Notes under the pieces: model-generated
What the model was told of the DNA's origin: nothing
The model's input: only the letters and a program-made list of their open reading frames with translations
Databases searched by the model: none
Translations under genes and position numbers: made by a program
DNA from: an uncultured Gammaproteobacteria bacterium
Lineage (GTDB): Bacteria; Pseudomonadota; Gammaproteobacteria; JAKDMP01
Assembly (NCBI GenBank): GCA_964586925.1
Contig: CAZPJI010000004.1
Span: 1,052 to 65,051, forward strand
Length of the DNA stretch: 64,000 bases
Direction of reading: 5' to 3'
Shown: piece after piece, positions 6,594 to 49,141 of the stretch
Layout: the number at the start of each line of letters is the position of its first letter
Position numbering within the stretch: the first letter of the stretch is position 1

Positions 6594-8816
6594 TCAGGAA
6601 CGCTTGCGTAAAGCCAACAAGCCGGCCAATGCCATTAGCCCGGCGAGCGTACCGAAGCCGAGCGCGCCACCACCGCCGCCACCCGATGAGGGCGGCGCCG
6701 TAACTGTGACGGTTGCGGTGTCATCAGTACTTTGCAGCGAATCACCACAAGTGAACGTCACCGTATAAGTACCTGCATTCATGTACTTAACGGCGGGTGG
6801 AGTCAACTGAGCGGAATCCGCAACACCTGAACCGGTGCCGAAGCTCCATTTGTAATTCAGCGTATGGGTCCCCGCATAGTTACAGCTCGCCTTGAACTGG
6901 ATACTCTTGCCTGTCTGAACGTTGATCGGAGAACCCGTCGGCGATGTGATGGCCGCCGTGATCGGCGAATCTAGCGAAGCAGCGGCGGCCGCGGCATCGA
7001 TCAGACCCGCACCGGCTTCATCCGCCGTCGGGGAACCATTAATAGCACTCATGCTGGCACTATCCATGATGATCTGCTTCCACTGTGCAGCGGTGTTGGT
7101 GCTGCTGGGCAAGGCGCTGCGCAACAGGGCAAGCACGGAAGCAACATTCGGCGATGCCGCGGAAGTGCCGTAGAAATAAGCTCCCCCGCCGGTTCTCGGA
7201 GACCCGAAACCACCCGCTCCGCTGACGGTAACTCCGTCCACGCCGGTAATGTCCGGCTTCGCTACCGACGTCGTCCCGTTCAGCCAGTCTCCGCTGATGT
7301 AAGGCCCGTTCTGGCTGAAAGTTTCCAAATTAACGCTCGCGCCCGTCGTACTCAGATGCGCGGCGGCCGCTGAAATCAACTCGGGCATTGCCGACTGGCC
7401 GTACATGCCGCCGCTGGACTTCACCGAGAAGGAGCCTGCGCCATCCAGCAAGCCCGTCAGCTTGACCAACAGATTCGACGTCTGGTTGCAGACGTAGCAC
7501 ATGACCACCAACTTAAGCGTTTGCGGCCCGCCTGTCGTGTCCGTGTACTGAACGAATTCAGCAGGCGGATTCCAGGTGACTGAACTGGGGCTGTAGTTGA
7601 TATCCGATTTCTGATCGTAGGTACTGGCGTCGAGAATATTGTTGTTGCTGTCGAGCAGGTAAAGATCCAAGTCGTCATACGGTCCATTGAGCGGATCATT
7701 CCAAGTCAATAGAAATGCGGTCGAATAATTCGCCGGCACTTTGCCGATATATACCGTCTCGTATGCGCTGCCACCAATATCCATCGCAGACTGGTAGGTA
7801 CGTGGCGTCGTCACACCGCCCGGCTCGACCGAGCTCGCCGAGGGCGCAGGTGTCAATGAAATGGGCACGGTCGCGCTGCTGGGCGCGTAGGTCGCCTGGT
7901 AATAGTCCTGACGATCATTGCCCACGGCCGTGACCAGTGAAATATTCGGGTTGTTCTGGGCGAAATTCTTGATTGCGGCGGCAAATGTCGTCGTAATCGG
8001 GTTGTTGTTGAAAAATGTATTCGGAAAACCCAGATCGTCGGAGATGATATCGGCCCCCCAGGCGGCAAAGTCCTGGTAGCAAGTCACGAAATCAACCGAC
8101 GTATTTGGCCCGCAGAAACCCAGCGAGGCCTGCGGCGCCATCGCATGGACTTCCTCGAGCATGGCCGTGCCCTCATCGCCACTGCCCGGAAAGCTCGAGT
8201 CGACCCATACGGTGCCGGGCAAATAGCCGGCTGTTTGGGAACTGGAAATGCAGTCGGCACCGTCGGAGATGATGCCAACCTTGACGCCACTGCCCTTGGT
8301 ACCCGCGGTATGCAAGTTCGAGACGTTTTCGGCGGTAATTCCTTCGTGGTCGATTGCAAGCCCCGACTGAACAGACGTGCAGCTATCCGCACGCGGTTGG
8401 ATGCCTCCCAACCCACGCATGACCGCATAGTCAGGCAAACCGATACGGGTTACACCGGTCATGTTCGCAAGCTGCTGCAGGCGCGAAATCGGCACCCAAG
8501 CCTGCACCACGCCGAGTGCCGCCCGGATATGGGTTGCACCCAGCATGACTAGTGACGAATCCCCAGGCCGCTGGCCGGGCTTGTAATGGATATAGACCTG
8601 TACTTCGCCACTGCTGTTTACATGCGGGTCAAAAATAGTGGTGCCGGCCAGATCACGTTTCTGATTGGCCATGCGCGTGACGATCTGTGGAGAGCGGGCA
8701 TATTCTGCGGACAATTTAGCCAGTCTGGGCGACAGGCCGCCCGCGTAGGCACTGTTTACCATGACCGCGGTTCCAAGAATGGCTGCGGCGCCAACCGATA
8801 GTTTGCTGATTTTCAT
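6594..8816 (-). CDS. Secreted S8/S53-like serine peptidase with propeptide, PKD domain and GlyGly-CTERM anchor
   Basis: Signal peptide ending AYA; GIISDG (Asp), DEGTAM (position of HGT), AVGND, YGTSAASP (Ser); PKD (YKWSFG...YMNAGTYTVTFT); C-terminus SSGGGGGGALG-TM-RKRS. Confidence 0.88.
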   Translation of the reverse strand: MKISKLSVGAAAILGTAVMVNSAYAGGLSPRLAKLSAEYARSPQIVTRMANQKRDLAGTTIFDPHVNSSGEVQVYIHYKPGQRPGDSSLVMLGATHIRAALGVVQAWVPISRLQQLANMTGVTRIGLPDYAVMRGLGGIQPRADSCTSVQSGLAIDHEGITAENVSNLHTAGTKGSGVKVGIISDGADCISSSQTAGYLPGTVWVDSSFPGSGDEGTAMLEEVHAMAPQASLGFCGPNTSVDFVTCYQDFAAWGADIISDDLGFPNTFFNNNPITTTFAAAIKNFAQNNPNISLVTAVGNDRQDYYQATYAPSSATVPISLTPAPSASSVEPGGVTTPRTYQSAMDIGGSAYETVYIGKVPANYSTAFLLTWNDPLNGPYDDLDLYLLDSNNNILDASTYDQKSDINYSPSSVTWNPPAEFVQYTDTTGGPQTLKLVVMCYVCNQTSNLLVKLTGLLDGAGSFSVKSSGGMYGQSAMPELISAAAAHLSTTGASVNLETFSQNGPYISGDWLNGTTSVAKPDITGVDGVTVSGAGGFGSPRTGGGAYFYGTSAASPNVASVLALLRSALPSSTNTAAQWKQIIMDSASMSAINGSPTADEAGAGLIDAAAAAASLDSPITAAITSPTGSPINVQTGKSIQFKASCNYAGTHTLNYKWSFGTGSGVADSAQLTPPAVKYMNAGTYTVTFTCGDSLQSTDDTATVTVTAPPSSGGGGGGALGFGTLAGLMALAGLLALRKRS

Positions 8817-8845
8817 TGACTCCCTCTAGGTGATTCCTGTTTGGC

Positions 8846-9364
8846 TTACTTGGGAAAACCATAGGCCGGCGGTGTAATCCGCACGACATCCGGTAATTTC
8901 GAGATGCGTTTCAATGCACTGGGGGTGGCCCAGACCTGATAGACCTTCATCGTTGCCACACCGCGCTCGATCGTCGCACCCGTTCCTGCCAAACGGGATT
9001 CGGTTGCTGCGTCGACATGGTTGACATAGATATAGACTTGGATCTGCTTCTTCGCATTGATATGGATACGCGAGTTGGACAGCGCCTTTGCAGCACTCCC
9101 GTCAGGCGCAGCCTGCACTTGCTTGACCATGGCTGCCAGCCCCGGGGTGAGCTTCGCCCAGCCTTGGGACACAGCCGGACTTGCTGCAGTCGATGTGGTG
9201 GGTTGTTCGGATATGGCCGGTTGTTCGACGGTGCTAGCCGCCGCTACCGTGCGCGGAGGCGGAGGCGTCGCCTTTGACGGTTGCCTAGCGGACGAGCCGT
9301 CATGACAGCCTGCCAGCGCCAAAGTTAACAAAATGCCCAGCCCTAGGCTAATGTGTTTATGCAC
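8846..9364 (-). CDS. Lipoprotein homologous to the propeptide of the adjacent subtilase (GTG start 9364 inferred; ORF track 9391)
   Basis: Lipobox LALAG-C, P/T/S/A-rich linker, then a domain that aligns by eye with the neighbouring protease prodomain. Confidence 0.75.
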   Translation of the reverse strand: MHKHISLGLGILLTLALAGCHDGSSARQPSKATPPPPRTVAAASTVEQPAISEQPTTSTAASPAVSQGWAKLTPGLAAMVKQVQAAPDGSAAKALSNSRIHINAKKQIQVYIYVNHVDAATESRLAGTGATIERGVATMKVYQVWATPSALKRISKLPDVVRITPPAYGFPK

Positions 9365-9530
9365 TATTTGCCACCGGTGAAACAGCGGCACAAAATATCA
9401 GAATTCTGCTGAAACAACAAAGAAGCAAGAATTTTTGCCGTCGTACCTGCACCCCGGTTATGCGATCTGACTACGCAAGCCGCGGCGTGAGAGGCTAAAA
9501 TGCTCGCCGTTTCTCACGAGCAGACTAAAT

Positions 9531-10067
9531 ATGGACCTGAATCAGATCGGTGCTGGCGCCAACCCGCCGGAAGAGCTCAACGCCATCATCGAAATTCCCG
9601 CCCACACGGCTCCCGTGAAATACGAACTGGACAAGAAAACCGGTTTGCTGGCCGTGGATCGTTTCCTGAGCACTTCGATGGTATACCCGGCCAATTACGG
9701 TCTTATTCCCTGCACACTTTGCGGCGACGGCGATCCACTCGATGTATTGGTCGTCACGCCGCTGCCGCTGGTTCATGGCTGCATGATCGAGGTACGTCCC
9801 GTCGACCTGATGATGATGACCGACGAGAAGGGCGAGGACGCCAAACTGATCGCGGTTCCGGTCTCCGGCGTTTATGCCGGCTTCAGCAAAGCCCAGTCGG
9901 TAGAAGACTTGCCGGGCGGCCTGAAAGGCCAGGTCGAGCACTTCTTCTCCCAGTACAAGGCCTTTGAGCCCGGCAAGTGGGTCGAGATCGACGGTTGGGG
10001 CGGTCGTGAGAAAGCGCTCGCCGAGGTGCGTAAAAGCATTGAGCTTTACCAGAAGCAGGCCGGCTGA
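9531..10067 (+). CDS. ppa: Family I inorganic pyrophosphatase
   Basis: VKYELDK, VDRFL, YPANYG.IP.TL..DGDPLDVLV, DEKGEDAKLI, YKAFE.GKWV. Confidence 0.96.
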   Translation: MDLNQIGAGANPPEELNAIIEIPAHTAPVKYELDKKTGLLAVDRFLSTSMVYPANYGLIPCTLCGDGDPLDVLVVTPLPLVHGCMIEVRPVDLMMMTDEKGEDAKLIAVPVSGVYAGFSKAQSVEDLPGGLKGQVEHFFSQYKAFEPGKWVEIDGWGGREKALAEVRKSIELYQKQAG

Positions 10068-15637: not shown

Positions 15638-17452
15638 TCATGAGGGAGACAGCACGGTGATGACCGGGTCATGATCCGAGGCACGATAAGGCGCCGCCGG
15701 GCCATGGCAAACGGGACCCCCGGCATAACCGAATCCACGCGCTTCATCGGCATCGATATGCCAGATGGCGGCGCCCCGCTCGTACTTCGCCAGCGCCGGG
15801 GAAAGGAAGACATAATCCAACCGCCCTGAACCGTAACTGCCGTTTTCCGTATATTCGGCGTCGCGGGCTTGCAACATCGGTTCCTCCTGCCAGCCATCTT
15901 GCAGCAATTCGCGGATAGCGGCCTCGTACGGATAGGCATTGAAGTCCCCGATGAGTGCCACGGCCGAAGTTGCAATGCCCGTCGGCCGCTGCCCGATCCA
16001 ACGCGCGAGATACGGTATGGCACGTGCACGTGCCCGCGCACAATGCCCCCCCCCATCCGAATTATCCAGATCCTTGCCGCAGCGGCTGCGCTTGGAGCGC
16101 AGATGCACCACGACGACGGTAAACGGCTTGCCGCCGGCGCGCGCACGGAAACTGGCGGCCAGAGCGGGACGCGTGAGCCCCTTGCGTACCGCACTGTCAT
16201 CGTCCGGGGGATCCAGCATGGCAACGTGACCCACACGAGCCAGACGGCTCGCATCATAAATCAGAGCCGGCGCAATAAGGTCCGTCCCGAGCCGTCGGGT
16301 TGGAGGGTGAACAAACCGATAGGCCGCCTTCGGCAGCGACCGGTTGAGCGCATCGACCAAGGTGCCAAGAGCGCCTTTCGGCCCATACCCGTTGTTCTCG
16401 ATCTCCTCCAGACCCGCAACCGTCGGCCGCATGGTTTGCAGCGCTGCGACCAGCTTGTCCGTCTGACACAGCCACTGCGAATGCGTACGCGCGCCGCGCT
16501 CGGTCGGAAAGGGCGATCCCGACGTTGCGCGATTGAAATAATTTTCGACATTGAAGGTCACCAGGCGCAGACCCTGCGGAAGTCCCAGCGACGCCCAGTC
16601 CGGTCGCGGGTTGGTCTTGCGCATCCGTCCGATGTGCGTCACTTCCAGCAAATAACGTCCGTAAGCGTGATAGGCCATGCCGGCGACGGATTCGAATACA
16701 TCACCGACACGCAGCGGGTGCAAGGCATTGAAAACCAGCTTGCCCAACTGCAGAGTTTGCGGTTGAGCCTTGCTGTTGCCGTGCAGCCAGATCTCCCGCC
16801 CGGCCGCAACCCGTATCAATTGACGTATGGCCGGGCCTGGAGTAGTCAACGCGGTGGGCGCATAGTGCTGTCCGCCTGCGTGCAGGCGCACTTCGCCGTA
16901 GCGAAGGAAATCGTCGAGATCGTCCACCGTGAGCGGCTGCCGGAGCTGAATGCGCATGCCGAGCCTGGCTTCCCATTGCCGTGCCGACTGCGGCAAAGAC
17001 ACGGTGATCGCCGGCGGCAATGCGAGCCGCCCACAATGTTCCATGCCTCGCGGGTACGCCAATTCCGGCACACCGTGAAAGGTCTGGTAACGAGCGGTGA
17101 ATGCGAGCCGCTGCCCGGAGGCAAAATTGTCCAGCGACTGCCGCCCGTCATAGACGAACGCGGCTTCGGTGGTGGCGGGGTCGTCATCCCACCCCGCCCG
17201 GGGCGTTTCGAGGAAAAATCCGTGCATACGCGGGAACACTGCAGTCACCACGCCTGTCACCCTGACCGTGTGGCCGGATCTTGCCGTTGCCAATGCATGC
17301 AATGGGGTGGCCCGCGCCCCACAATCGCCCCAGGCGAACCGGGCCCAACCCAGCACCGCCAACAGGATCGCCAAGCCGGCGCACACATGACGCCTTTTAT
17401 CAAAACCAGCCCGCGGTCTAACCACCTGAGTGCGGCGTCCCCTTTGTCTCAC
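15638..17452 (-). CDS. ExeM/NucH-like extracellular endonuclease (EEP fold with OB-like N-terminus); start may be GTG 17386
   Basis: GVVTAV..GFFL, TFNVENYFN, GLEEIEN, VVHLRSK, GDFNAY, GRLDY, ASDHDPV; hydrophobic signal-like N-terminus. Confidence 0.85.
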   Translation of the reverse strand: MRQRGRRTQVVRPRAGFDKRRHVCAGLAILLAVLGWARFAWGDCGARATPLHALATARSGHTVRVTGVVTAVFPRMHGFFLETPRAGWDDDPATTEAAFVYDGRQSLDNFASGQRLAFTARYQTFHGVPELAYPRGMEHCGRLALPPAITVSLPQSARQWEARLGMRIQLRQPLTVDDLDDFLRYGEVRLHAGGQHYAPTALTTPGPAIRQLIRVAAGREIWLHGNSKAQPQTLQLGKLVFNALHPLRVGDVFESVAGMAYHAYGRYLLEVTHIGRMRKTNPRPDWASLGLPQGLRLVTFNVENYFNRATSGSPFPTERGARTHSQWLCQTDKLVAALQTMRPTVAGLEEIENNGYGPKGALGTLVDALNRSLPKAAYRFVHPPTRRLGTDLIAPALIYDASRLARVGHVAMLDPPDDDSAVRKGLTRPALAASFRARAGGKPFTVVVVHLRSKRSRCGKDLDNSDGGGHCARARARAIPYLARWIGQRPTGIATSAVALIGDFNAYPYEAAIRELLQDGWQEEPMLQARDAEYTENGSYGSGRLDYVFLSPALAKYERGAAIWHIDADEARGFGYAGGPVCHGPAAPYRASDHDPVITVLSPS

Positions 17453-30485: not shown

Positions 30486-34018
<3,533 letters not shown>

Positions 34019-34102
34019 GGAAGCCCGAAATAGGCTTGGGGGAAGTAATCGCCCGGCTTACTGTCCTGCGTCATCCTGTTTGCCTGCGTATAGCATGGGT
34101 TG

Positions 34103-35206
34103 CTACAGCCGCATAGGCATAATGACATAGCGGTACCGTTCACTATCAGGCGCGCCCAGAAGTGCGCTGGAATTGGAATCCGTAAACTGGAATTCTACGG
34201 TCTCGCTGTCGAGAGCGGCTAAAGCGTCCTGCAGATAAGTCGCGTTGAAAGCGATAACCAGACGCTCACCTTCGTAGTTTGCGGTGACCTGTTCCTCGGC
34301 TTCCTCGTTCTCCGGATTGTGCGCAGCCAGCTTGAAGCCCTCGTCTGAGGCTTCCAGCCGAATACCACGGAATTTCTCATTGGCCAGGATCGCTACACGG
34401 GTGAGCGCTTCACGCAGGGGGCCGCGGTCCGTCACCAGCTTTTTGTTGCAGCTCTTGGGAATAACGCGATCATAATCAGGGAATTGGCCATCAATAAGTT
34501 TGGTCGTCATGACCTGTGTTCCCAGGTCAAAGCGGGCGTGGGTTTGAGTCAGCGTTACTTCAATCTGTTTTCCGGCTTGGCCGAGAAGACGCTCCAATTC
34601 CATAACCGCCTTGCGGGGCAGAATAGCCGCCTGCTCCCCCTCTACCTCGGGATTCTGCTCCGCATCGCATAAGGCAAGACGGTGCCCATCAGTAGCGACG
34701 GCACGCAACCGTTCTGGAGATAATTCCAGCAGGAGCCCCGTCAGATAGTATCTGACGTCTTGTTGTGCCATTGCGAACGCACTGCGCTTGAGCAAGTCGG
34801 ACAAGACACTGCTTTCGATACTGAAGCGCAAGCCGCTGTCCAGGTCTCCGACCGTAGGAAATTCATCCACGGGCAACGTGGTCAAGACGAAACGGCTCCG
34901 TCCGGAACCAAGCCGCAACCGGCCTTCCTCCTGGCTGAGCTTGATGCTGGCTCCCTCCGGGAGTGCACGGCATATATCCAAAAGTTTACGCGCGGGTACC
35001 GTGGAAGCTCCGGTCTTCTTGCCGCCCTGCGACAAACGTGCATTCATTTCCACTTCAAGATCAGTCGTTACCAGGCGGATTGCGTTATCCGCTTCCACTT
35101 CGATGCAAACATTACCAAGGATGGGAATTGTTTGCCGACGTTCTACAACACCAATGACGGCTTGCAAGGGTTGAAGGATTTCTTCTCTTAATAATTCAAT
35201 TTCCAT
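34103..35206 (-). CDS. dnaN: DNA polymerase III beta clamp
   Basis: VERRQTIPILGN, TDLEVE, QDVRYYLTG, ATDGHRL, GQFPDY, YVIMPMRL. Confidence 0.98.
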   Translation of the reverse strand: MEIELLREEILQPLQAVIGVVERRQTIPILGNVCIEVEADNAIRLVTTDLEVEMNARLSQGGKKTGASTVPARKLLDICRALPEGASIKLSQEEGRLRLGSGRSRFVLTTLPVDEFPTVGDLDSGLRFSIESSVLSDLLKRSAFAMAQQDVRYYLTGLLLELSPERLRAVATDGHRLALCDAEQNPEVEGEQAAILPRKAVMELERLLGQAGKQIEVTLTQTHARFDLGTQVMTTKLIDGQFPDYDRVIPKSCNKKLVTDRGPLREALTRVAILANEKFRGIRLEASDEGFKLAAHNPENEEAEEQVTANYEGERLVIAFNATYLQDALAALDSETVEFQFTDSNSSALLGAPDSERYRYVIMPMRL

Positions 35207-35385
35207 AATTTCATCCTGTCATAGTAATTAGTGCTGTGAATATCGTAAAAACCCTAATTTAAAGTTAAAAAACAACAAGTTATAGATTTTCTTCTATTGT
35301 ATAAGTTGACCATTTTCGGTTGATGTTTTGTGGATAACTTCAGTCTTTTTTCCGATGCACAGTTTATCCACAAGTCGTCCCGTAT
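35207..35385. other. Putative oriC (dnaA-dnaN intergenic region)
   Basis: Two perfect DnaA boxes, TGTGGATAA 35329-35337 and TTATCCACA 35364-35372, next to a strongly AT-rich tract (about 35207-35320) in a GC-rich genome. Confidence 0.75.
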
Positions 35386-36717
35386 TCATACCGAAAGTTG
35401 TTTCACCAGATTTTGGTAGTCAGAATCCATTTGCGCATCACTCGCCCTTAGCTCGCGTATTTTGCGGCAGGCATGCAAAACGGTGCTATGGTCCCGGCCG
35501 CCGAATGCATTACCGATTTCAGGTAGGCTATGGCGGGTTAATTCCTTGGCGAGAGACATGGCGATTTGCCGTGGCCGGGTAACAGAACGTGAGCGATTCT
35601 TGGAGCACAGGTCTGCAGTACGTATGCGGAAATAATTAGCGACCGTGCTCTGGATATTATCGATGGTAACCAGCTTCTGCTGTACGGCCAGGAGATCCCG
35701 CAAAGCTTCCCGGGCCAGATCGAGTGAGACCGGCCGCCGGGTAAACCGGGCTGTGGCAAGGACGCGCCTAAGAGCCCCCTCAAGTTCGCGGACGTTGGAG
35801 CTGATGCGCTGGGCGAGGAAGAAAGCCACGGATTCCGGCAATTCGATGCCCTGCTGCTGGGCCTTGCTCATGGCGATCGCGACCCGTGTTTCGAGTTCGG
35901 GTGGATCGACCGAAGCAATCAGACCCCATCCAAAGCGGGATTTCAGACGTTCTTCCAACCCCGAGATTTCTTTCGGGTAGCGGTCGCTGGTCAACACGAT
36001 TTGGTGCCGTCCCTCCATCAGCGTGTTGAAGGTGTGGAAGAACTCTTCCTGAGAACGCTCCTTATTGGCGAAGAACTGAATGTCATCTATGAGCAGCACG
36101 TCCAGGGAACGGTATTGCTCCTTGAAGCTGTCGATGCGCCCATGCTGCAGAGCCCGGATCATATCGTTGACGAAGCGTTCGGATTGCACGTAGGCGACGC
36201 GTCGACGGCCCCCGTCCTGCTCACTCAAATGGTTTGCCAGGCTATGCATAAGGTGCGTTTTGCCCAGACCCACGCCGCCGTAGATGAACAAAGGATTGTA
36301 TTGTCCGCCCGGTTGCTCGGCTACCAGGAGGGCGGCGGCACGTGCCATCTGGTTGGATGGCCCCTCGATGAAATTAGCAAAACGGTAGGCTGGGTTGATC
36401 GGGTTTCCAGGCACCGGTGGCCGATCCCGGACGCTGCGACGCTTGTTGGCGTCCGGCGGCAGGCCTTCTTCTTCACCGGAGCCCAAGCCGAGTTCTACAC
36501 GTGCGTTGGGATCGGAATCGAATTCTTGTGTCAGAGCCCTGATCTTGTCCAGGAAGCGGGATTCAACTTCCTTGAGGACAAATCGATTGGGAGCCAGCAG
36601 CCGCAGTGAGCCGTCGTTTTCTACCGCATGCAATGGCCGCAGCCAGAGGTTCAGATCGCGCTCTTCACACTCCTGTTCCAGGCGGTTAAAACAACGTTGC
36701 CATAGGCTTGCGGCCAT
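35386..36717 (-). CDS. dnaA: Chromosomal replication initiator
   Basis: YNPLFIYGGVGLGKTHL, LLIDDIQF, RLKSRFGWG, NVRELEGAL, GGRDHSTVLHA. Confidence 0.99.
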   Translation of the reverse strand: MAASLWQRCFNRLEQECEERDLNLWLRPLHAVENDGSLRLLAPNRFVLKEVESRFLDKIRALTQEFDSDPNARVELGLGSGEEEGLPPDANKRRSVRDRPPVPGNPINPAYRFANFIEGPSNQMARAAALLVAEQPGGQYNPLFIYGGVGLGKTHLMHSLANHLSEQDGGRRRVAYVQSERFVNDMIRALQHGRIDSFKEQYRSLDVLLIDDIQFFANKERSQEEFFHTFNTLMEGRHQIVLTSDRYPKEISGLEERLKSRFGWGLIASVDPPELETRVAIAMSKAQQQGIELPESVAFFLAQRISSNVRELEGALRRVLATARFTRRPVSLDLAREALRDLLAVQQKLVTIDNIQSTVANYFRIRTADLCSKNRSRSVTRPRQIAMSLAKELTRHSLPEIGNAFGGRDHSTVLHACRKIRELRASDAQMDSDYQNLVKQLSV

Positions 36718-36872
36718 TGCCTGAAAACTGTCGGGAAAGGCCTCACAGTCTAACTCCCATGCGTCCCCCGATCTACTGCTTCGAACCTTGACATGAGGCC
36801 TGTGGACTGGTCTAATGTGCGACCAGCTTTAAAGCATGTGTGAGCGCGTCGCCGCGCCGATCAAGGTCCAAC

Positions 36873-37007
36873 ATGAAACGAACCTACCAGCCCAGCAAAA
36901 TTCATCGCAAACGTACGCATGGATTCCGTGCACGGATGGCTACCAAAGGGGGCCGGCTTGTGCTCAAGTCCCGCCGTGCCAAGGGGCGTGCCCGCCTCAG
37001 CGCCTGA
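36873..37007 (+). CDS. rpmH: 50S ribosomal protein L34 (absent from ORF track)
   Basis: Hand translation: [44 protein letters not shown]. Confidence 0.97.
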
Positions 37008-37347
37008 CGCCAAGTCCGGCTACGGTTTCCCCCGTGCGGCACGCCTGACCCGTCCGTCTGAGTTCACGCGTGTATTCAAACAAGGGCACCGCAGCCACAC
37101 ACGCTACTTTATCCTTGTTGCGACCTCAGGCGGCGTACGGGCCAGATTGGGTCTTGCCGTCGGTCGCAAGGCTTCACCGCGGGCGGTTGCCCGGAACCGG
37201 ATCAAACGGATAGTTCGTGATGCATTTCGCCGTACACCATTGCCGTCCATGGACTTCGTCGTCGTGGCGCGCAGCGGTTGCGGACGTGTGGACTCAGAAG
37301 CGTTGCGCAAGGATCTCCTTGTGGCCCTGGAAGCATTGAAGCAATGA
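36988..37347 (+). CDS. rnpA: RNase P protein component (GTG start 36988 inferred)
   Basis: FPRAARL....[23 protein letters not shown] (RNR motif), MDFVVVAR. Confidence 0.92.
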
Positions 37348-37568
37348 GATCCGTGATCATCGCCTGCATCCGCTTTTACCAAATCGTGTTCAGTCCCTGG
37401 CTGGGCAATCATTGCCGCTACTCCCCCACCTGCTCCGCCTACGCCATCGAAGCGGTGCGCAGGCACGGTGTCGTCCGCGGTCTGATCCTGGGCATCGCCC
37501 GGATCAGCCGTTGTCATCCTTTCCACGCCGGAGGCCATGATCCGGTGCCGCCGAGAACACATCACTGA
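37344..37568 (+). CDS. yidD: Membrane protein insertion efficiency factor
   Basis: YQIVFSP..G.HCRYSPTCS.YA.EA...HG...G......RI.RCHPF..GG.DPVP. Confidence 0.95.
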   Translation: MRSVIIACIRFYQIVFSPWLGNHCRYSPTCSAYAIEAVRRHGVVRGLILGIARISRCHPFHAGGHDPVPPRTHH

Positions 37569-39283
37569 TGGATACACGTCGACTTTTTCTCTATATTGCA
37601 TTGGGCTTGATCCTTTTACTGCTCTGGCAGCAGTGGCAAGCGGATCATCCTGTGCCGGTGCAGCATCCGGCTACGCCGGCGGCCAGCAGTACGGCGGCGG
37701 CAGGTAATCAGGCGGCGACGCCGGAAGCGACCTCTCCGAACAAGTCGACCCCACAGACACCGGCCGTAGCGTCGGTAAGCAACGGCGCGATCGGTATCGA
37801 AGCACCCGCCGGGCCGGAAATCACTGTGCATACGGATGTTCTGGATGTTGCCATAGCATTACAGGGCGGCGAACTGACCCGCGCAACCCTGCTCAAATAT
37901 CCGCAAAAGCTGCATTCGAAAGAAAAAGTCAGGTTGTTGGCGGCCGGAACCAGCCAGGGGCCGGCCATGATGATCAAGCCGGAACTGCACGGTTCCGCAT
38001 TGCCCGCAAACCCTGCATTTACAGCATCCGCCAAGGAATACCGTCTTATCCAGGGCCAGGACTCGCTACGCGTGCCACTCACCTGGCATGGAAACGGGAT
38101 CACCGTGCAGCGGGTGCTGGTATTCAAACGGGGCAGCTACCAGGTACAGGTGCAGACGAAAATCGTTAATGCAAGTGATAAGGCATTGACCCTGGTGCCG
38201 GGCGTACGCGTGGTCGGTTCCAATCCCATAACACCCAAACATTTTTGGGATCACTTCCTACCCAAGTACTATGCATATCGCGGACCGGCTTACTACAACG
38301 GCAAAGACGGGTATGAAAAGGTCACGATCAAGGACCTCAACGACCAGCCCCTAGATAAACAATTCAGTGGAGGCTGGATTGCTTCGGTGAAGCAATACTT
38401 TGTAGCGGCCGCGATTCCGGGGGGGAGGCAGAACGCACGATATTTTGCCCATACCCGGGACGGCAAGTACGCACTGGGCTATAACCTGGCACCTCTGGCA
38501 GTCACCGCGGGCGGCCAGGCGAGCACGGATATGCGACTTTTCCTGGGCCCCAAGAAGCAGGGTCTGCTAAAGCAGGTCGCACCCGGTTTGCCGCGTACCG
38601 TTGATTACGGCAAGGCCACGATTATTTGTAAGCCGATTTTTGCCGTTCTCTCTTTTATTCATCGTTTTCTCGGCAACTGGGGGTGGTCGATCATTATCCT
38701 GGTGCTGTTGATCAAGGCATTGTTCTACTTTCCTCAGCGCATGAGCGCACGCTCAATGGCCAAGATGCGTAAGTTGCAGCCGCGTCTTAAATTGCTGCGC
38801 GAGCGCTATAAGGACGATCGGCAGAAATTGTCCCAGGCGACCATGGATCTCTACAAGCAGGAAGGCGCCAATCCGGTGGGTGGTTGCCTGCCCATGCTGA
38901 TCCAGATTCCGATTTTCATCGGCTTGTTCTACGTGTTGATCTACAGTGTCGAGTTGCGCCAGGCGCCCTGGATGCTGTGGATTCATGATTTGTCACAGCC
39001 CGATCCCTATTACGTATTGCCCGTCATCTATGCGGCACTGAGTTTCATTCAGTTCCGCCTGCAGCCGCAGGCCATGGACAATGCGCAGGCCAAGATGATG
39101 ATGGTCATGCCGTTGCTGTTCGCGTTCTTCTATGCCTTGTTCCCGTCGGGCCTGGTCTTGTATTACACGCTCAGCACCGGCCTCAATATCGCGATCCAGT
39201 ACCAGGTCAACCATGAACTGGGAATGAAAGGGTTGGGTGTGTTGCCGAAGATCAATTGGCCGGGTGGCAAAAAAGGCGGTTGA
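37568..39283 (+). CDS. yidC: Membrane protein insertase
   Basis: N-terminal TM, periplasmic domain (KQYFVAA, LFLGPK), VDYG, GNWGWSII, KMRKLQP, NPVGGCLP.LIQIP, WIHDLS.PDP. Confidence 0.97.
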   Translation: MDTRRLFLYIALGLILLLLWQQWQADHPVPVQHPATPAASSTAAAGNQAATPEATSPNKSTPQTPAVASVSNGAIGIEAPAGPEITVHTDVLDVAIALQGGELTRATLLKYPQKLHSKEKVRLLAAGTSQGPAMMIKPELHGSALPANPAFTASAKEYRLIQGQDSLRVPLTWHGNGITVQRVLVFKRGSYQVQVQTKIVNASDKALTLVPGVRVVGSNPITPKHFWDHFLPKYYAYRGPAYYNGKDGYEKVTIKDLNDQPLDKQFSGGWIASVKQYFVAAAIPGGRQNARYFAHTRDGKYALGYNLAPLAVTAGGQASTDMRLFLGPKKQGLLKQVAPGLPRTVDYGKATIICKPIFAVLSFIHRFLGNWGWSIIILVLLIKALFYFPQRMSARSMAKMRKLQPRLKLLRERYKDDRQKLSQATMDLYKQEGANPVGGCLPMLIQIPIFIGLFYVLIYSVELRQAPWMLWIHDLSQPDPYYVLPVIYAALSFIQFRLQPQAMDNAQAKMMMVMPLLFAFFYALFPSGLVLYYTLSTGLNIAIQYQVNHELGMKGLGVLPKINWPGGKKGG

Positions 39284-39308: not shown

Positions 39309-40547
39309 CTACTCGCCGCGCCAGCGCCGGAAAATCAGGCTGGTATTGATGCCGCCGAAGGCGAAGTTATTGCTCATCACGTAATCGACTTCGGCCTCGA
39401 GAGGCTTGCCGGTGATGTGATTGATCGGCGCGATGTCGTCGCCGGGGGTTTCCAGGTTGCGGGTCGGCGCGAACCAGCCCTCATTCATCATCTGGATGGC
39501 AAGCCACGCCTCAAGCGGCCCGCAGGCTCCGATCGGATGCCCGAAATAACCCTTCATGGAACTGACCGGCACCTGGTCTCCTAGAACTTCCAGCGTGGCC
39601 TGTGCTTCCGCCACATCGCCGCGGTCTGTGCCCGTGGCATGGGCACTTACGTACCCGATCTGCTCGGGTTTCAGCTCGGCGTTATCGAGGGCGGCACGCA
39701 TGACCTCAGCCATGGTGACCATATTGGGCCGGGTGATGTGGGTGCCATCGGTATTGCTGGCAAAGCCCGCGATCTCGGCATAGATTCTGGCACCCCGCGC
39801 ACTGGCATGCTCTAGATCTTCAAGGATGAGGGTAGCTCCGCCCTCGCCGACCACGATTCCGTCCCGGGTGGCATCGAATGGGCGCGGCGAGCGTTCAGGG
39901 GTTTCGTTCAAGGTACCGGTGGCACCGATCATATCGAAAACTACGGCACTGACTACCGACAGCTCATCGGCACCGCCGGCCACCATCAGTTCCTGACGTC
40001 CGTCCTGAATGGTTTCGTAGGAGTAGCCGATGCCCTGGCTGCCCGAGGTGCATGCGCTGCACGTCGGAATGAGTCGGCCCGTAATCTTGAAGAACACGCC
40101 GATGTTGACCGCTCCGGTTTGCGCCATCATCTGCACGTAGCTGTTGGGTGCTGCACCGCGTAGTGTGCCGAGTTCGGCGAAACGTCCCGCGGCGACGATG
40201 GGCTTGATGCTTCCTGCCGAGGATCCATAGGCGATGCCGGCGCGGCCGCTGCGCAGGATGGGTTCACCGATCAGTCCGGCGTCCTCGAGCGCGAGCTCGG
40301 AAGCCCGCACGGACAGGGTCGATACGCGGCCCATGCCGCGCATGATCTTGCGGTTGTAATGCGACGGCAGTTCGAAAGCCTGTGCAGGGGCGCCCAGGCG
40401 GGTGTGGAGTTCCTTGTAGTCGTCCCATTCGCTCATGTACCTCACGCCCGTACGGTTTTCCAGCAGGGCGCTGCGAATAGTGGGCCAATCGTGTCCGAGG
40501 GCCGTGAGGCCTCCGCATCCGGTCACGACGACACGGCGCTTCTTCAT
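39309..40547 (-). CDS. Beta-ketoacyl-ACP synthase (FabF/ApeR-like)
   Basis: RRVVVTG, SACTSGSQ (Cys), SAHATGT, KGYFGH, NNFAFGGIN. Confidence 0.92.
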   Translation of the reverse strand: MKKRRVVVTGCGGLTALGHDWPTIRSALLENRTGVRYMSEWDDYKELHTRLGAPAQAFELPSHYNRKIMRGMGRVSTLSVRASELALEDAGLIGEPILRSGRAGIAYGSSAGSIKPIVAAGRFAELGTLRGAAPNSYVQMMAQTGAVNIGVFFKITGRLIPTCSACTSGSQGIGYSYETIQDGRQELMVAGGADELSVVSAVVFDMIGATGTLNETPERSPRPFDATRDGIVVGEGGATLILEDLEHASARGARIYAEIAGFASNTDGTHITRPNMVTMAEVMRAALDNAELKPEQIGYVSAHATGTDRGDVAEAQATLEVLGDQVPVSSMKGYFGHPIGACGPLEAWLAIQMMNEGWFAPTRNLETPGDDIAPINHITGKPLEAEVDYVMSNNFAFGGINTSLIFRRWRGE

Positions 40548-41275
40548 GCAAGTCCTCCGTTGACTCCGATAACTTGTCGTGTGATGTAAGCGGCGGGCGG
40601 TGTGAACAGGAAGGCCACAATCGCGGCGACCTCCTCCGGCGTGCCGGCCCGGCCGGCGGGAATAAGTGGCAGGATGTGCTCCTGGGGCACCTCGGCGCTC
40701 ATATCGGTCTCTATCAGTCCAGGGGCTACGCAGTTGACGGTAATCCGGCGGCTGGCCAGTTCCACCGCCAGGGCCTTGGTGGCGCCGATGATGCCGGCCT
40801 TGGCGGCACTGTAATTGACCTGACCACGGTTGCCAATCTGCCCGGCGACCGAAGACAGGGTGACGATGCGTCCACCCGATCGCAGCCGGACCATCGGCAT
40901 CACCAGTGGCTGAACAACATTGTAGAAGCCGTCCAGGTTAGTGGTGAGGACGTTGTCCCAGGCATCGCCGTCCATGGCGGCAAAGGTATCGTCGTCGGTG
41001 ACGCCGGCATTGGCGACGATTCCCCAGAAGGCGCCGTTGTCCTTGATCTCGCCTTCCAGCGCATCCCGGGTTTGTTCGCGGTCGGCCACGTTGAACGCCA
41101 GGACGGAAGCCGTTCCGCCCGCGTCGCGGATGCCGGCAGCGGTATCCTGCGCAGCATCGACGCGGCTACGGCAATGAACCACGATCTCGAAGCCTGCGCC
41201 ACCCAGTGCCAGGGCGATCGCGCGCCCTATCCCGCGGCTAGCGCCTGTCACCAGAACCCGCTGTTGATCCGTCAT
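40544..41275 (-). CDS. 3-oxoacyl-ACP reductase (FabG/ApeQ-like)
   Basis: VLVTGASRGIG, NAGVTDD, GNRGQVNYSAAK, NCVAPGLIET, VNGG; ATG at 41275. Confidence 0.92.
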   Translation of the reverse strand: MTDQQRVLVTGASRGIGRAIALALGGAGFEIVVHCRSRVDAAQDTAAGIRDAGGTASVLAFNVADREQTRDALEGEIKDNGAFWGIVANAGVTDDDTFAAMDGDAWDNVLTTNLDGFYNVVQPLVMPMVRLRSGGRIVTLSSVAGQIGNRGQVNYSAAKAGIIGATKALAVELASRRITVNCVAPGLIETDMSAEVPQEHILPLIPAGRAGTPEEVAAIVAFLFTPPAAYITRQVIGVNGGLA

Positions 41276-41745
41276 GCTTCTCCCTGGTTCATATCGCCGC
41301 ACCACAGCATCAGGCGGGCACTGACATATAGTTTATCGGCGCACAGGATACGACACTCGAATGTGCCCAATTCGCCGTTTTCCAGATCTGCGGCCTCGCA
41401 ATCGGCCTCGATACGCAGTTCGGTATCCACAGGAAGTCGAGGTTCGGCGATATCGATGCGCTTTACACCGACCAGATAGCCCACAGCCGGCGAGTGGCCC
41501 GTGTTGTCCGGAGTTCGGGATAATCCCAGGTACAGGCCCGCGCACTGGGCCATGATCTCGAGGCCGGCCCAGCCCGGTACGCCGAGGCGCTCAGGGTCAT
41601 ACAGCGCGCTGGCTTCGCGAACGGTCCATTGCGCCGCGACTCTCTGCCCGGGGGCAAAGTCGAGAATACGATCCACGCAACAGGCTTCCGGGCCGTGGGG
41701 CAGCAAGTCAAGGGGCATGGGCCACGCGGCCGGGCAGCTGTTCAC
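41272..41745 (-). CDS. Hotdog-fold dehydratase (ApeP-like); GTG start 41745 inferred
   Basis: LLPH, VDRI, GLEIMAQ, GYLVGVK. Confidence 0.85.
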   Translation of the reverse strand: MNSCPAAWPMPLDLLPHGPEACCVDRILDFAPGQRVAAQWTVREASALYDPERLGVPGWAGLEIMAQCAGLYLGLSRTPDNTGHSPAVGYLVGVKRIDIAEPRLPVDTELRIEADCEAADLENGELGTFECRILCADKLYVSARLMLWCGDMNQGEA

Positions 41746-42218
41746 AGGAATTTTTCCAGGCATTTGAGCAAGACATCGGGGGTGGCAAGCTGCATTTCGC
41801 CATCGGCGTCCACAGCGCACTGGAGGGTGTAGCCGGTTGTGATGCGGGCCCCGTTCTCCGCGTCCGTGATGAGATAACCGATACGCAAGGCGCATTCCCA
41901 CTGCTCGATACCCGCCGCCACATGCAGCCGCTGTGCATAACGGGAGGCCTGCACATAGCGGAGTTTGGCCTCGATAATCGGCCAGGTGTAACCCGAGGCT
42001 TGCATGTCCGGGTAGTCGTAACCGATCTTACGCATCAGGGCGACCCGCGCCGATTCGAAGTGGCGCAGGTAGTGGCCGTGCCAGGTAATCGCCATGGGAT
42101 CCAGGTCGGGGAATTCCACCTCGATCTCCACTGACGCCTCGACCAGCCAGTTTTTGCGGGTGCGCGCAGCACGGCTGCCGGCTGTGGACGTGTTCATGGG
42201 GCAGGGCTCAAGTGGCAT
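41742..42218 (-). CDS. Acyl-CoA/ACP thioesterase (ApeK-like, 4HBT family)
   Basis: F.DLDPM.ITWHGHY..HFESAR, GY.WPIIE, L.IGY.I.DA..G...T.G.T.Q.AV. Confidence 0.88.
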   Translation of the reverse strand: MPLEPCPMNTSTAGSRAARTRKNWLVEASVEIEVEFPDLDPMAITWHGHYLRHFESARVALMRKIGYDYPDMQASGYTWPIIEAKLRYVQASRYAQRLHVAAGIEQWECALRIGYLITDAENGARITTGYTLQCAVDADGEMQLATPDVLLKCLEKFL

Positions 42219-42263
42219 GAATATAGCTCTTCGAGGGTTTGTACGCAGGATACATGAGCAGAC

Positions 42264-43001
42264 TCAGGATAGGTTCCGCGAGCGCCGAGAGCCCCGTGCC
42301 AGGCGTATCGGCATCCCGGCCAGCAGGCGCAGGTGGAGCCAGGTCATGCGCAGGTTGTCGCGAAGCATGCGGAAGTTCGACAGTCCGTCGGTCGGGTAGC
42401 GGACATCGACCGGCAGGAAGCGCACTGGCGTGCCGGACAGGAACAGGCGCACCATGATTTCGGTGTCGAAGTCCATGCGCCGGCCGACCGGTTGGCTGGT
42501 GAAAGCGGCCAGGCTGGCGGCTACTGGATAGACACGATAGCCACACATGGAGTCCTTGAGTTCGCACGACCAGGTCTCGAGCCAGACCAAAAGATGCGTA
42601 ATCCAGCGTCCGTAGTAACGCACCGCCGGAACGCTGTCATCATAGGCCGGCATTCCCGAGATCAGCGCCCGCTCGTCGGCTTGCGCCAATTCGAGCAGCA
42701 GTGGCGCCTGCCGGGGGTCGTGCTGGCCGTCAGCGTCGATTTGCAGGACGTGCGTATAGCCGGCTTCGCCGGCGGCTTCCAGGCCGGTGAGGAAAGCGGC
42801 CCCCTTGCCCCGATTCTCGGTATGGCGCAGAACCGTCACCCGAGGGTCGCCAGCGGCCAGCTTGTCGATCGTCTCAGCGGTAACGGCATCGCTTCCATCG
42901 TCCACCAGGATCACCGGCAGCGATTGGGCACGGAGCTCGCCGACCAGGTACTGCAAGGAGTCGTGGTGATTGTAGATGGGGATCAGTGCGCAGGGCGTCA
43001 T
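42264..43001 (-). CDS. GT2 glycosyltransferase (ApeJ GT-domain-like)
   Basis: LIPIYNH, LVDDGS, NRGKG, QIDADGQH, DSMCGYRVYP, RMDFDTEI. Confidence 0.9.
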   Translation of the reverse strand: MTPCALIPIYNHHDSLQYLVGELRAQSLPVILVDDGSDAVTAETIDKLAAGDPRVTVLRHTENRGKGAAFLTGLEAAGEAGYTHVLQIDADGQHDPRQAPLLLELAQADERALISGMPAYDDSVPAVRYYGRWITHLLVWLETWSCELKDSMCGYRVYPVAASLAAFTSQPVGRRMDFDTEIMVRLFLSGTPVRFLPVDVRYPTDGLSNFRMLRDNLRMTWLHLRLLAGMPIRLARGSRRSRNLS

Positions 43002-43010
43002 AGTCGTTCG

Positions 43011-43376
43011 TCAGAAGTTGAGGCGGCCACGGCTGAGCAGCGCAGCATCAGCCAGGAATTGCCAGCTCACGCGGTTTTCTTCGCGGTGCAGATCGAGCAG
43101 CAGGGCTTTATCGAGCGGCACCGTCTCCAGAAATTTCACCCGGCCGATACTTACGGGATCGTGGCCGAAATCGAAATGCTCCCGGGCGTAGAAAACGGCC
43201 CAGGCGATCTGGGCCACGCCCGGCAACACCGGGCGCGACGGGAAATGGCCCCGGAACCAGACCAGGTTGGGCGGAATGGCAAGATGCAGGCGCACGCCGT
43301 CGGGTAGCGGCTGGCGGTTCCTCAGTTCGGGGAGCCGGGCCGCGGGAGAGGATGTGCTGCCGGCGTCAGCCCTCAT
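43011..43376 (-). CDS. FabZ/ApeI-like dehydratase
   Basis: WFRGHFP..PVLPGVAQI.WA, VKF. Confidence 0.85.
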   Translation of the reverse strand: MRADAGSTSSPAARLPELRNRQPLPDGVRLHLAIPPNLVWFRGHFPSRPVLPGVAQIAWAVFYAREHFDFGHDPVSIGRVKFLETVPLDKALLLDLHREENRVSWQFLADAALLSRGRLNF

Positions 43377-43614
43377 CGATCATGCGGCGGATTTCGCATT
43401 CCACGTCCGCAACGGTGCGGACATGGCGAAACTCCTGTGGGGTCACCTTGCGGCCCGTAAGTTCACGCACCACGATCGCAAGGTCTATGGCATCAATGCT
43501 GTCGAGATCCAGGTCTTCATAAAGACGCGCTTCCGGGCGGATGTCGGCTGGATCCAGCTCGAATCGTTCCACCAGCAACTTGTGAAATCGCGCCGAAATA
43601 TCTTCCTGGTTCAT
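43366..43614 (-). CDS. Acyl carrier protein
   Basis: LYEDLDLDSIDAIDL phosphopantetheine motif; FRHVRTVADV. Confidence 0.92.
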   Translation of the reverse strand: MNQEDISARFHKLLVERFELDPADIRPEARLYEDLDLDSIDAIDLAIVVRELTGRKVTPQEFRHVRTVADVECEIRRMIDEG

Positions 43615-43665
43615 AGGTCGCGCTGCCCCCTCGAATGGGGACGGTAATGGCCGGAGGGAAAGTGG

Positions 43666-44481
43666 TCAGGGCGGCAAAAGTGGTTCATGTGGCTTGGAAG
43701 ACAGTTGTCGTAAAAAATAATTTTCTAGGCCCCGTGTGGCCCGCCGCGCCATCCGAGATAAATCCTCGGAGGAGCCCCCGGCAAAGTCGGCAATGTCGCA
43801 AGGCGCACCAAAGCGTATCACAAGATGTACGCGCCTGTCGGGCATCCGGTACCAGGGATGGCCGTGGGTCAGCGCCGGCGGGTCGCAGTGGACCACAAGC
43901 GGCACAATGCGGAGTCCGGCACGCAGGGCTACCTGGGCCGCGCCGCGGCGGAAGCGCAGGGGCGCACCCGGGGTAGAGCGCGTGCCTTCGGGGAAGATCA
44001 GGATTGGCTCGCCTCGCGTGCTGGCCGCGCGGCAGGCCTCGATCAGTTTTTGCGGATCGTCGTTGTCGCAGGCGATGTAGCCGCCCAGTCGAGTGAACGG
44101 GAAAAACAGCGGGTGATTGAGCAGCGAGGATTTCATGACGCAATTTACGCGCGGAAGATGAGCCATGAGAAAGACGGCGTCGAGATAGCTCGGATGGTTG
44201 GCTACCAGCAGGCAACCCGCCAGATCCGGGATGCCGTCGCTGCGCACCTCGATGTCGGCCAAGCCGAAACCTTCGATCATGCGGATCAATAGGCGGAATC
44301 CCACACTGGCCAGCCCGCGAATCCGCTGCTCCCGCAAGCGGCGCGGCGTGACCAGCAACAGGATTGGCAATGGGACAAACAGGCCAAACAGGGCCACAAT
44401 GCCGAAAATGGCGAAGCCCAGGCCGGCGAGCGCACTGTGGCGCAGGCTCTCGATCCGGTTAAAGCCGTGTGTTTCCATCAA
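43666..44481 (-). CDS. PlsC-type acyltransferase (ApeD-like)
   Basis: VANHPSYLD, CVMK, IFPEGTRS, F.RGAA. Confidence 0.88.
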   Translation of the reverse strand: MMETHGFNRIESLRHSALAGLGFAIFGIVALFGLFVPLPILLLVTPRRLREQRIRGLASVGFRLLIRMIEGFGLADIEVRSDGIPDLAGCLLVANHPSYLDAVFLMAHLPRVNCVMKSSLLNHPLFFPFTRLGGYIACDNDDPQKLIEACRAASTRGEPILIFPEGTRSTPGAPLRFRRGAAQVALRAGLRIVPLVVHCDPPALTHGHPWYRMPDRRVHLVIRFGAPCDIADFAGGSSEDLSRMARRATRGLENYFLRQLSSKPHEPLLPP

Positions 44482-47361: not shown

Positions 47362-47372
47362 GCGCGTAGCCG

Positions 47373-47651
47373 TCAGGCGTTTTCCGCCCGGCGAGCAGCG
47401 ATATAGGCGGCCAGTGCGCGCAGCGACCGGAAGGCCTCTCGATCCCGTTCGTTATCCGATTTCAGTTGTACGCCGTATTGTTTGGCTATAGCCAGAGACA
47501 ATTCCAGGGCATCGATGGAGTCCAGACCCAGGCCTTCACGGAACAGGCGCGCCTCGGGGTCGATGTCCTCGGCGGTTACATCTTCCAGTTCCAGTGCGGA
47601 CACGATCAGTTGCGCCACGTCCAGTTCAAAGTCGGTCATTTGTCCACTCAC
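47373..47651 (-). CDS. Acyl carrier protein (XanC/ApeE-like)
   Basis: IDPEA.LF.EGLGLDSIDALEL...I.KQYG. Confidence 0.92.
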   Translation of the reverse strand: MSGQMTDFELDVAQLIVSALELEDVTAEDIDPEARLFREGLGLDSIDALELSLAIAKQYGVQLKSDNERDREAFRSLRALAAYIAARRAENA

Positions 47652-47790
47652 CCGGGCCCTCGATGCCCTGTTTCTCAGCGAGATTATCCTATATTGTGTG
47701 ACACGGCTTGAAAAGCTCGTAAATTCGGCGATTTATCGCTAATATGCGCCCGGTTTGCCCGGTCTGTACGAATACAGCGGAGAAAGCGTG

Positions 47791-49131: not shown

Positions 49132-49141
49132 TCAAGCCGGG

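Follow-up and report, generated by a model that had tools for sequence, protein, structure and literature searches.

The window analyzed here is a 64,000-nucleotide stretch of DNA from an uncultured Gammaproteobacteria bacterium (GTDB lineage JAKDMP01; assembly GCA_964586925.1, contig CAZPJI010000004.1, positions 1,052 to 65,051 of the forward strand). Two adjacent genes on its minus strand encode a lipoprotein and a subtilisin-fold protease, and their features are listed in Table 1. The original prediction, made from the sequence alone, described the lipoprotein as a lipid-anchored duplicate of the propeptide of the neighboring subtilase and suggested that it serves the protease as an inhibitor, foldase, or docking partner. 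The elements that it named are all present in the sequence: the two genes lie 29 bp apart on one strand, the protease has its own ribosome-binding site (RBS; AGAGGGAG, 6 nt ahead of the ATG), and the lipobox LALAG-C of the lipoprotein is followed by a linker rich in Pro, Thr, Ser, and Ala.

Table 1. Features of the lipoprotein–protease gene pair (window positions; residues of the lipoprotein are numbered in the 181-aa open reading frame, ORF; pLDDT, predicted local distance difference test)
Feature	Position	Strand	Basis
Lipoprotein gene (stand-alone propeptide-like protein)	8846–9391 (longest ORF, 181 aa); likely 8846–9364; stop codon 8846–8848	minus	ORF list
Lipoprotein signal peptide with lipobox LTLALAG-C29	9305–9364	minus	read from sequence
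Disordered P/T/S/A-rich tether, residues 30–77 (~48 residues)	9161–9304	minus	pLDDT mostly <60
Folded propeptide-like domain, residues 78–181	8849–9160	minus	AlphaFold2, Foldseek, hhalign, dN/dS
Intergenic spacer with protease RBS AGAGGGAG	8817–8845 (29 bp)	minus	read from sequence and terminator scan
Protease gene (740 aa)	6594–8816; ATG at 8816	minus	ORF list
Protease Sec signal peptide, residues 1–25 (...NSAYA-GG)	8742–8816	minus	sequence; low-confidence helix in model
Cis N-terminal (pro)domain, residues 26–134	8415–8741	minus	same element order as lipoprotein domain; Y130 invariant
Subtilisin-fold catalytic domain, residues ~156–615	6972–8351	minus	Pfam S8, Foldseek
Key catalytic-domain codons (also D260/D261)	S184 8265–8267; E215 8172–8174; N300 7917–7919; S552 7161–7163	minus
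PKD domain, residues 628–706	6699–6935	minus	Pfam PKD_4 E = 2e-10, PKD E = 1e-8
C-terminal sorting-tag-like tail (Gly run, hydrophobic helix, RKRS)	6597–6698	minus	sequence

The real start of the lipoprotein is probably the in-frame GTG at 9364 rather than the codon at 9391, because the homologues begin with MHK, and the precursor would then have 172 residues. No terminator-like site was detected between the two genes in a promoter/terminator scan. The scan found no more sites than shuffled sequence yields, and it placed no promoter for the gene pair on the minus strand; a search of the window against Rfam gave no match. We propose that the two genes form an operon-like module. All 20 close homologues of the lipoprotein are unnamed or annotated as "hypothetical protein."

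The lipobox cysteine (Cys29, codon 9305–9307) is invariant in 18 homologues. It is followed by His at position +2 and Asp at +3, and by the Escherichia coli rule, which may not hold in this taxon, the lipoprotein would be destined for the outer membrane. In the AlphaFold2 model, residues 1–77, comprising the signal peptide and the tether, are disordered, whereas residues 78–178 are predicted with confidence (pLDDT > 90). The folded part begins with two helices (residues 83–94 and 98–102) and continues as strand (117–123), helix (128–136), strand (140–145), strand (150–155), helix (157–163), and strand (169–173). The tether differs in length and sequence among homologues. In the 18 homologues, 22 columns are invariant, and the domain is under purifying selection, with a ratio of nonsynonymous to synonymous substitution rates (dN/dS) of 0.14 between the window protein and its orthologue in locus L001.

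The homology between this domain and the N-terminal domain of the protease was confirmed at the sequence level, far beyond chance. The original alignment, made by hand, had about 22 identities in about 68 columns. BLASTP found 23 identities in 68 columns (34%) at E = 9e-8, aligning lipoprotein residues 110–177 with protease residues 65–130, so that the pairwise match is significant. A profile–profile comparison of the two families with hhalign extended the match to 104 columns (lipoprotein 78–181 on protease 25–134; probability 99.1%, E = 7.1e-19), a span that takes in the N-terminal helix LTPGLAAM/LSPRLAKL, and a hidden Markov model (HMM) built from 102 protease N-domains matched the lipoprotein at E = 1.7e-16. 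In the model of the protease, residues 30–126 repeat the order of secondary-structure elements of the lipoprotein domain.

A Foldseek search of the Protein Data Bank (PDB) with the lipoprotein model returned subtilase propeptides at nearly all of the top ranks, including those of pro-subtilisin E and Tk-subtilisin, the prodomains of PC1/3 and PCSK9, and fervidolysin. The prosegment of subtilisin BPN' (1spb_P) superimposed with a template modeling (TM) score of 0.75 and a root mean square deviation (rmsd) of 1.8 Å over 66 columns. Pfam and NCBIfam searches with the lipoprotein and 18 homologues gave only noise, with no match to the I9 or pro-kumamolisin families. Judged from the predicted model, the domain has the I9-type (subtilase-propeptide) fold and yet is no sequence member of Pfam I9. 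The earlier assignment to the I9 propeptides thus stands for the fold and not for the sequence family.

The C termini of the stand-alone proteins follow a regular pattern relative to the domain junction of the protease. Tyr130 of the protease is conserved in every one of 102 homologues, and the residue four positions downstream is Arg or Lys in 66 of them; in the window protease, this is Arg134, a conserved basic residue at the domain junction (LPDY130-AVMR134). The same was seen in related proteins within the range P0141–P0286. Of 119 short members of the family, 103 carry the corresponding Tyr motif no more than 25 residues from the C terminus. Exactly 50 of the 103 stop at the fourth residue after the Tyr (Y+4), and 42 of the 50 end in Arg or Lys. 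This regularity is referred to below as the end rule. The window lipoprotein itself ends in PPAY-GFPK (GFPK-stop, coding end 8849–8860), and its last residue, Lys181, is aligned with Arg134 of the protease by hhalign. From these alignments, Arg134 may be P1 of an autoprocessing site four residues past the invariant Tyr130. Because about half of the stand-alone proteins stop where the protease carries the conserved basic Arg134, they would mimic an already cleaved propeptide, with a free carboxylate at P1. In the complexes of subtilisins (BPN' and E) with their propeptides, the cleaved form stays bound in the cleft. An alignment with the BPN' propeptide, which is not significant but topologically sensible, places Lys181 on Tyr77, the P1 residue of that propeptide, and is at most a weak hint.

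The cis prodomain of the protease (residues 26–134) is complete and conserved in 102 homologues. In the protease model (pLDDT 88.6; predicted TM score 0.87), it is followed by a low-confidence linker at residues 135–150. The match to the Pfam S8 profile (E = 2e-13) is confined to the last two thirds of the catalytic domain, but Foldseek with the model placed pro-subtilisin E, CspB, Tk-SP, and SpyCEP at E values of about 1e-11, which identifies the subtilisin fold. The best sequence match in the PDB was mirolase. An all-β insertion of ~160 residues (protease residues ~310–470, window 7400–7890) lies between the oxyanion Asn (Asn300) and the nucleophile Ser552; it carries a conserved WNDP motif and a sub-threshold match to the PPC domain.

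The catalytic residues depart from those of an ordinary subtilase, and the original prediction failed in treating the neighbor as one. In HMM alignments to BPN', the segment VGvISdG falls on VAVIDSG, sgdEGTam on nsHGTHV, and AAGND on AAGNE, so that Ser184 occupies the position of Asp32, Glu215 that of His64, and Asn300 that of Asn155. The columns of Asp32 and His64 became visible in a local hmmsearch and when the PDB was searched with a sub-profile; whole-profile hhalign against mature BPN' gave only the C-terminal third. Glu215, Asn300, Ser552, and Asp261 are invariant in 102 of 102 homologues and Ser184 is present in 101, whereas Asp185, which lies beside Ser184 and might substitute for Asp32, is found in only 74. 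Like the S8 enzymes, the family thus has the subtilisin fold, the GTSxAxP nucleophile motif (Ser552), and an Asn as the oxyanion residue (Asn300), and unlike them it carries Glu at the position of His64 and Ser at that of Asp32, without the Asp-His-Ser triad. The Glu at the general-base position is shared with family S53 (sedolisins). In S53, the triad is Ser-Glu-Asp, in which the Asp follows the Glu by one helical turn, and a further Asp lies in the oxyanion hole. This signature is missing from the window protease: the residue four positions after the Glu is Met219 (Met in 92 of 102 homologues), and the oxyanion position is the invariant Asn300. A profile of protease residues 150–312 matched no S53 chain in the PDB at E ≤ 10. 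With no S53 chain matched and with different signature residues, a sedolisin identity was rejected. On these sequence features, the family fits neither S8 nor S53.

A possible acid partner of Glu215 can be named. In a hand alignment of DIISDDLGFP with DVINMSLGGP of BPN', the invariant pair Asp260-Asp261 falls on residues 124–125. In subtilases, the residue at position 125 (Ser125) is in contact with the catalytic base (PMC11593635). Asp261 is on this ground a candidate acid partner, which we infer from the alignment only. The EGTAM motif around the Glu is widespread, and relatives are encoded in at least 433 genomic stretches from bacteria and archaea. At the base position, 34 of 44 long proteins with this type of prodomain have EGT and none has HGT. 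Most of these proteases bear the public name "PKD domain-containing protein," "Ig-like domain-containing protein," or "S8 family serine peptidase." According to a review, the subtilisin fold has only two known catalytic types, S8 and S53 (PMC11593635). No description of a subtilase with Glu in place of His was found in the literature, a weak negative given the incomplete literature coverage.

The C-terminal tail of the protease resembles the GlyGly-, MYXO-, and PEP-CTERM sorting tags but stays below every NCBIfam cut-off. Its sub-threshold matches were to the SVAGG-GlyGly, PEP-CTERM, and IPTL-CTERM models, and the tail of the orthologue P0022 had a sub-threshold match to MYXO-CTERM. As the tail did not reach the cut-off of any sorting-tag model, it is not labeled GlyGly-CTERM here. 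Deltaproteobacterial homologues have Cys-containing, MYXO-CTERM-like tails. No rhombosortase was found among the window ORFs scanned, which cover part of the window.

The pairing of a stand-alone propeptide-like gene with a protease of this family extends well beyond the window. An exhaustive profile search returned 483 clusters at 50% identity that match the lipoprotein domain. Among the best 150 of these 483, 106 were short proteins (≤260 aa), and the long ones were almost all proteases of the neighbor family with the domain at the N terminus. For the genomic context, 92 loci were fetched (prefix L), and the HMM scan for both domains covered the 87 then in the set. A stand-alone copy lies upstream of the protease, on the same strand and with a gap of 0–60 bp, in L001–L006, L009, L012, L013, L019, and L083. 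In L008, L010, and L031, it is downstream of and convergent to the protease. The pairing recurs in unrelated genome contexts and down to ~31–36% protease identity, and a lipobox is present in each of the 13 stand-alone proteins from proteobacteria that were inspected. In a reverse look-up from distant stand-alone proteins, two of the three with informative flanks (P0225 and P0175) were directly upstream of family proteases. The linkage of the two genes is conserved: many loci of proteobacteria, and some of acidobacteria, have a stand-alone copy next to a related protease. Over the loci scanned, no stand-alone gene was found beside the family proteases of Chloroflexota, Bacillota, Planctomycetota, or archaea.

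Several loci depart from the simple pair. L088 (246–4698) has one stand-alone gene followed by two tandem proteases, and L092 (117–1007) encodes a lipoprotein with two tandem propeptide-like domains (P0152). Two loci from Acidobacteriota, L085 and L081, carry beside the protease a distinct domain subtype with its own sequence motif. In L081, the domain is fused into a 340-aa protein (656–1675) with a leucine-rich N-terminal part, it matches the HMM weakly (E = 1e-3), and the gene lies ~0.7 kb upstream of that of the acidobacterial protease. Metallibacterium scheffleri (L007, GCA_002077135.1) is the nearest cultured organism identified with a family protease, and it has no stand-alone gene within 4 kb of that protease. 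The protease of this acid-mine-associated relative (L007 4001–6421) is named only "PKD domain-containing protein," and lptF/lptG lie upstream of it.

In a neighbor-joining tree of the domains, low in resolution because the domain is short, one clade holds the stand-alone copies of the gammaproteobacterial loci and a second clade holds their cis partners, and the two clades branch alike internally. In the same tree, trans and cis domains grouped together in the deltaproteobacterial L009 pair and in the L083 pair. With the motif shared by the acidobacterial pairs, this suggests one old duplication followed by co-divergence in the lineage of the window and independent duplications in other lineages. 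A recent local duplication was rejected, as the stand-alone and cis copies belong to separate old clades. Of the earlier idea of a duplicated propeptide, the homology to the N-domain of the neighbor stands, but the lipoprotein is not a recent copy of this neighbor; it belongs to an old, co-diverged family of hundreds of clusters.

Here, we propose that the lipoprotein is a tethered, trans-acting inhibitor, a propeptide mimic that keeps the processed protease silent in or on the envelope, and we put the probability of this reading at roughly 60%. The protease would be exported, fold on its cis propeptide, and cut itself at the domain junction after Arg134. When the cis propeptide is lost, the lipoprotein domain would take its place on the same face of the catalytic domain. 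The lipoprotein tail (PPAY-GFPK-COOH) would then lie in the substrate cleft with its last residue at P1, like that of a cleaved propeptide. The protease would be held inactive and tethered to the membrane, inside or on the envelope, until its release or export.

The proposal has precedents. Stand-alone propeptide mimics potently inhibit propeptide-bearing subtilases (PMC6993865). The closest known counterparts in fold and logic would be, by analogy, the stand-alone I9-type inhibitors, namely Plasmodium SUB1-ProM, Pleurotus POIA1, yeast PBI2, Arabidopsis SPI-1, and Toxoplasma MIC5, with SUB1-ProM as the nearest (PMC6993865). The SUB1-ProM gene also lies beside subtilase genes in Plasmodium, its target subtilase retains its own propeptide, and an endogenous inhibitory role has been shown or proposed (PMC6993865). 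These inhibitors are eukaryotic and soluble, whereas the window protein is bacterial and would be lipid-anchored by a long tether. It also differs from them in its sequence homology to the propeptide of the neighbor, in a family that typically ends at the predicted P1 residue, in its Glu-variant partner, and in the lack of a Pfam I9 match. Where gene order, lipid anchor, and proposed role are concerned, the nearest known analogues are the potempins of the KLIKK-peptidase/potempin system of Tannerella forsythia, which are lipoproteins of 98–132 residues encoded directly upstream of, and co-transcribed with, the proteases that they inhibit (PMC9890683). Potempins are anchored in the outer membrane and protect the surface of their own cell, and one of them, PotC, inhibits a subtilase (PMC9890683). 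They are OB-fold (oligonucleotide/oligosaccharide-binding) proteins or eight-stranded β-barrels that have no relation to propeptides and block the cleft with loops (PMC9890683), and they are found in Bacteroidota with cargo of the type IX secretion system, whereas the window domain has a predicted α/β propeptide fold. The window pair is like them in its lipobox, its upstream co-oriented gene, its 29-bp gap without a terminator-like site, and its recurrence in related loci.

Two further systems are similar in arrangement. ORF2 (PDB ID: 3wqb), the external chaperone of the serine protease ASP of Aeromonas sobria, is a separately encoded, propeptide-like partner beside this subtilase-fold protease and has a tail that reaches the active site. 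Unlike the window protein, it is not a lipoprotein and is required for the folding of ASP, which has no propeptide, whereas the window protease has a full cis domain. Spi, encoded beside streptopain (SpeB), is a free-standing paralogue of the propeptide of the neighboring protease and has been proposed to protect the producer cell. It differs from the window protein in belonging to a cysteine-protease system with a different fold and in being cytoplasmic and not a lipoprotein.

A number of observations weigh against the inhibitor proposal. With E values of 0.014 and above, the Foldseek matches of the lipoprotein domain are weak, which a fold of ~70 residues would lead one to expect. PF05922 (Inhibitor_I9) had no match at E ≤ 10 in the 18 lipoprotein family members or in the N-domain of the protease, and the comparison of the trans and cis profiles with the propeptide sequence of subtilisin BPN' was not significant (hhalign, E 0.3–0.6). 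About half of the stand-alone proteins run past Y+4. The assignment of Lys181 to P1 is a prediction from the end rule and from the alignment of the cis and trans domains rather than from a solved complex, and the catalytic mechanism of the partner protease is likewise predicted. Finally, the fetched flanks of the proteases in L007, L016, L017, and L030 contain no stand-alone gene, and the stand-alone protein P0244 is encoded without a protease on its 2.2-kb contig.

Other functions of the lipoprotein have to be weighed against inhibition. Binding would be common to the first three of the alternatives below. The lipoprotein might be a trans-acting foldase, an intermolecular chaperone that folds or matures the protease in the periplasm as ORF2 does in Aeromonas sobria, with inhibition as a by-product. 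Propeptide folds are classical folding catalysts, the upstream position of the gene would make the partner available first, and ORF2 (3wqb_B) is itself found at rank 25 of the Foldseek matches, but this match is poor (probability 0.54, rmsd 7.2). The protease retains its own cis domain of this fold, complete and strongly conserved, so that a second foldase is not obviously needed, whereas ORF2 serves a protease that lacks a propeptide; moreover, many family proteases have no stand-alone partner nearby. We consider a foldase unlikely. The propeptide-binding face might instead retain the mature protease at the outer membrane or surface, with catalysis not mainly blocked. In favor of such docking, the lipid anchor and the flexible tether of ~48 residues are conserved as features, although not in sequence. 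However, a membrane or sorting tail is already present at the C terminus of the protease, and the conserved, substrate-like tail of the lipoprotein, ending on a basic residue, points to the active-site cleft and thus to occlusion, which makes docking as the main role quite unlikely.

The lipoprotein could also guard the envelope, not against the cell's own enzyme but against related proteases that competitors secrete. Environmental metagenomes of the same kinds commonly contain family proteases, and one stand-alone gene has no adjacent protease, as would suit such a shield. The tight adjacency of the two genes and the mirrored phylogenies of the trans and cis domains point to a cognate pair and leave defense against foreign enzymes very unlikely. 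A functionless, decaying remnant of a partial gene duplication would have in its favor nothing beyond the fact that the gene is a partial copy. The low dN/dS, the invariant columns, and a recurrent lipobox with regular protein ends over hundreds of clusters are hardly reconcilable with decay, and the pseudogene reading was rejected on the dN/dS and the conservation.

If the lipoprotein is the cognate inhibitor of its neighbor, it would be the first known bacterial case that joins a stand-alone propeptide mimic with a lipid-anchored inhibitor co-transcribed with its protease. To our knowledge, stand-alone propeptide mimics have so far been described in fungi, plants, and apicomplexans, and lipid-anchored co-transcribed inhibitors only in Tannerella. 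A family of proteins annotated as hypothetical or not at all, whose domain is matched by 483 clusters, would gain a name and a testable function. The end rule gives a sharp prediction of the autoprocessing site and of the inhibitory mechanism. We did not find a description of the combination of a bacterial propeptide-fold lipoprotein, homology to the propeptide of the neighbor, an end at the predicted P1, and a Glu-variant partner; a search of the literature for a bacterial propeptide-like lipoprotein inhibitor also gave none, again a weak negative with incomplete literature coverage. The remark in the original prediction that no such two-gene arrangement had been described holds for this specific bacterial combination, but close precedents exist in SUB1-ProM (PMC6993865) and the potempins (PMC9890683).

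Of the two proteins, the protease with its variant catalytic residues may be the greater novelty. Within the subtilisin fold, the partner enzymes appear to make up a large branch with Glu in place of His that has gone unstudied. This bears on the relationship between the S8 and S53 machineries, and, if the lipoprotein is a cognate inhibitor, the branch would supply proteases that come with natural and specific protein inhibitors. A broader reading, which we regard as possible but doubtful, is that the family is an undescribed third catalytic type of the subtilisin fold in bacteria and archaea, with a Ser nucleophile, a Glu base, no Asp32, an Asn oxyanion residue, and perhaps Asp261 as the acid partner, and that lipid-anchored, P1-ending propeptide mimics were repeatedly derived from it in proteobacteria and acidobacteria to silence the enzyme in the envelope.

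The gene pair is flanked by an ATP-binding cassette (ABC) transporter on one side and by ppa, waaF, rfaD, and glnE on the other, and the same neighbor genes surround it in the relatives L001 and L003–L005. Compared with the window and L001, the ppa–lipoprotein–protease block (window 6594–10067) is inverted in L003 (2783–6217), L004 (2806–6490), and L005 (2880–6832) with respect to the ABC-transporter and waaF/rfaD/glnE genes on its flanks; the gene content is otherwise the same.

The window is chromosomal and covers the replication-origin region (30486–39283), with gyrB at 30486–32915, dnaA at 35386–36717, and yidC at 37568–39283. The cumulative GC skew has its minimum at 36–40 kb, and the G+C content falls to 53–56% at 32–36 kb of the window. 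An extracellular endonuclease of the ExeM/NucH family is encoded at 15638–17452 (NCBIfam E = 4e-114); unlike the Shewanella ExeM type, it lacks a GlyGly-CTERM-like tail. A cluster at 39309–51150 contains two genes similar to β-ketoacyl-acyl carrier protein synthases, one at 39309–40547 identified by an NCBIfam match and one at 49936–51150 assigned from its sequence ends only, together with an acyltransferase gene (43666–44481) and a small acyl-carrier-like ORF (47373–47651). This cluster may encode a specialized lipid or polyketide-like pathway.

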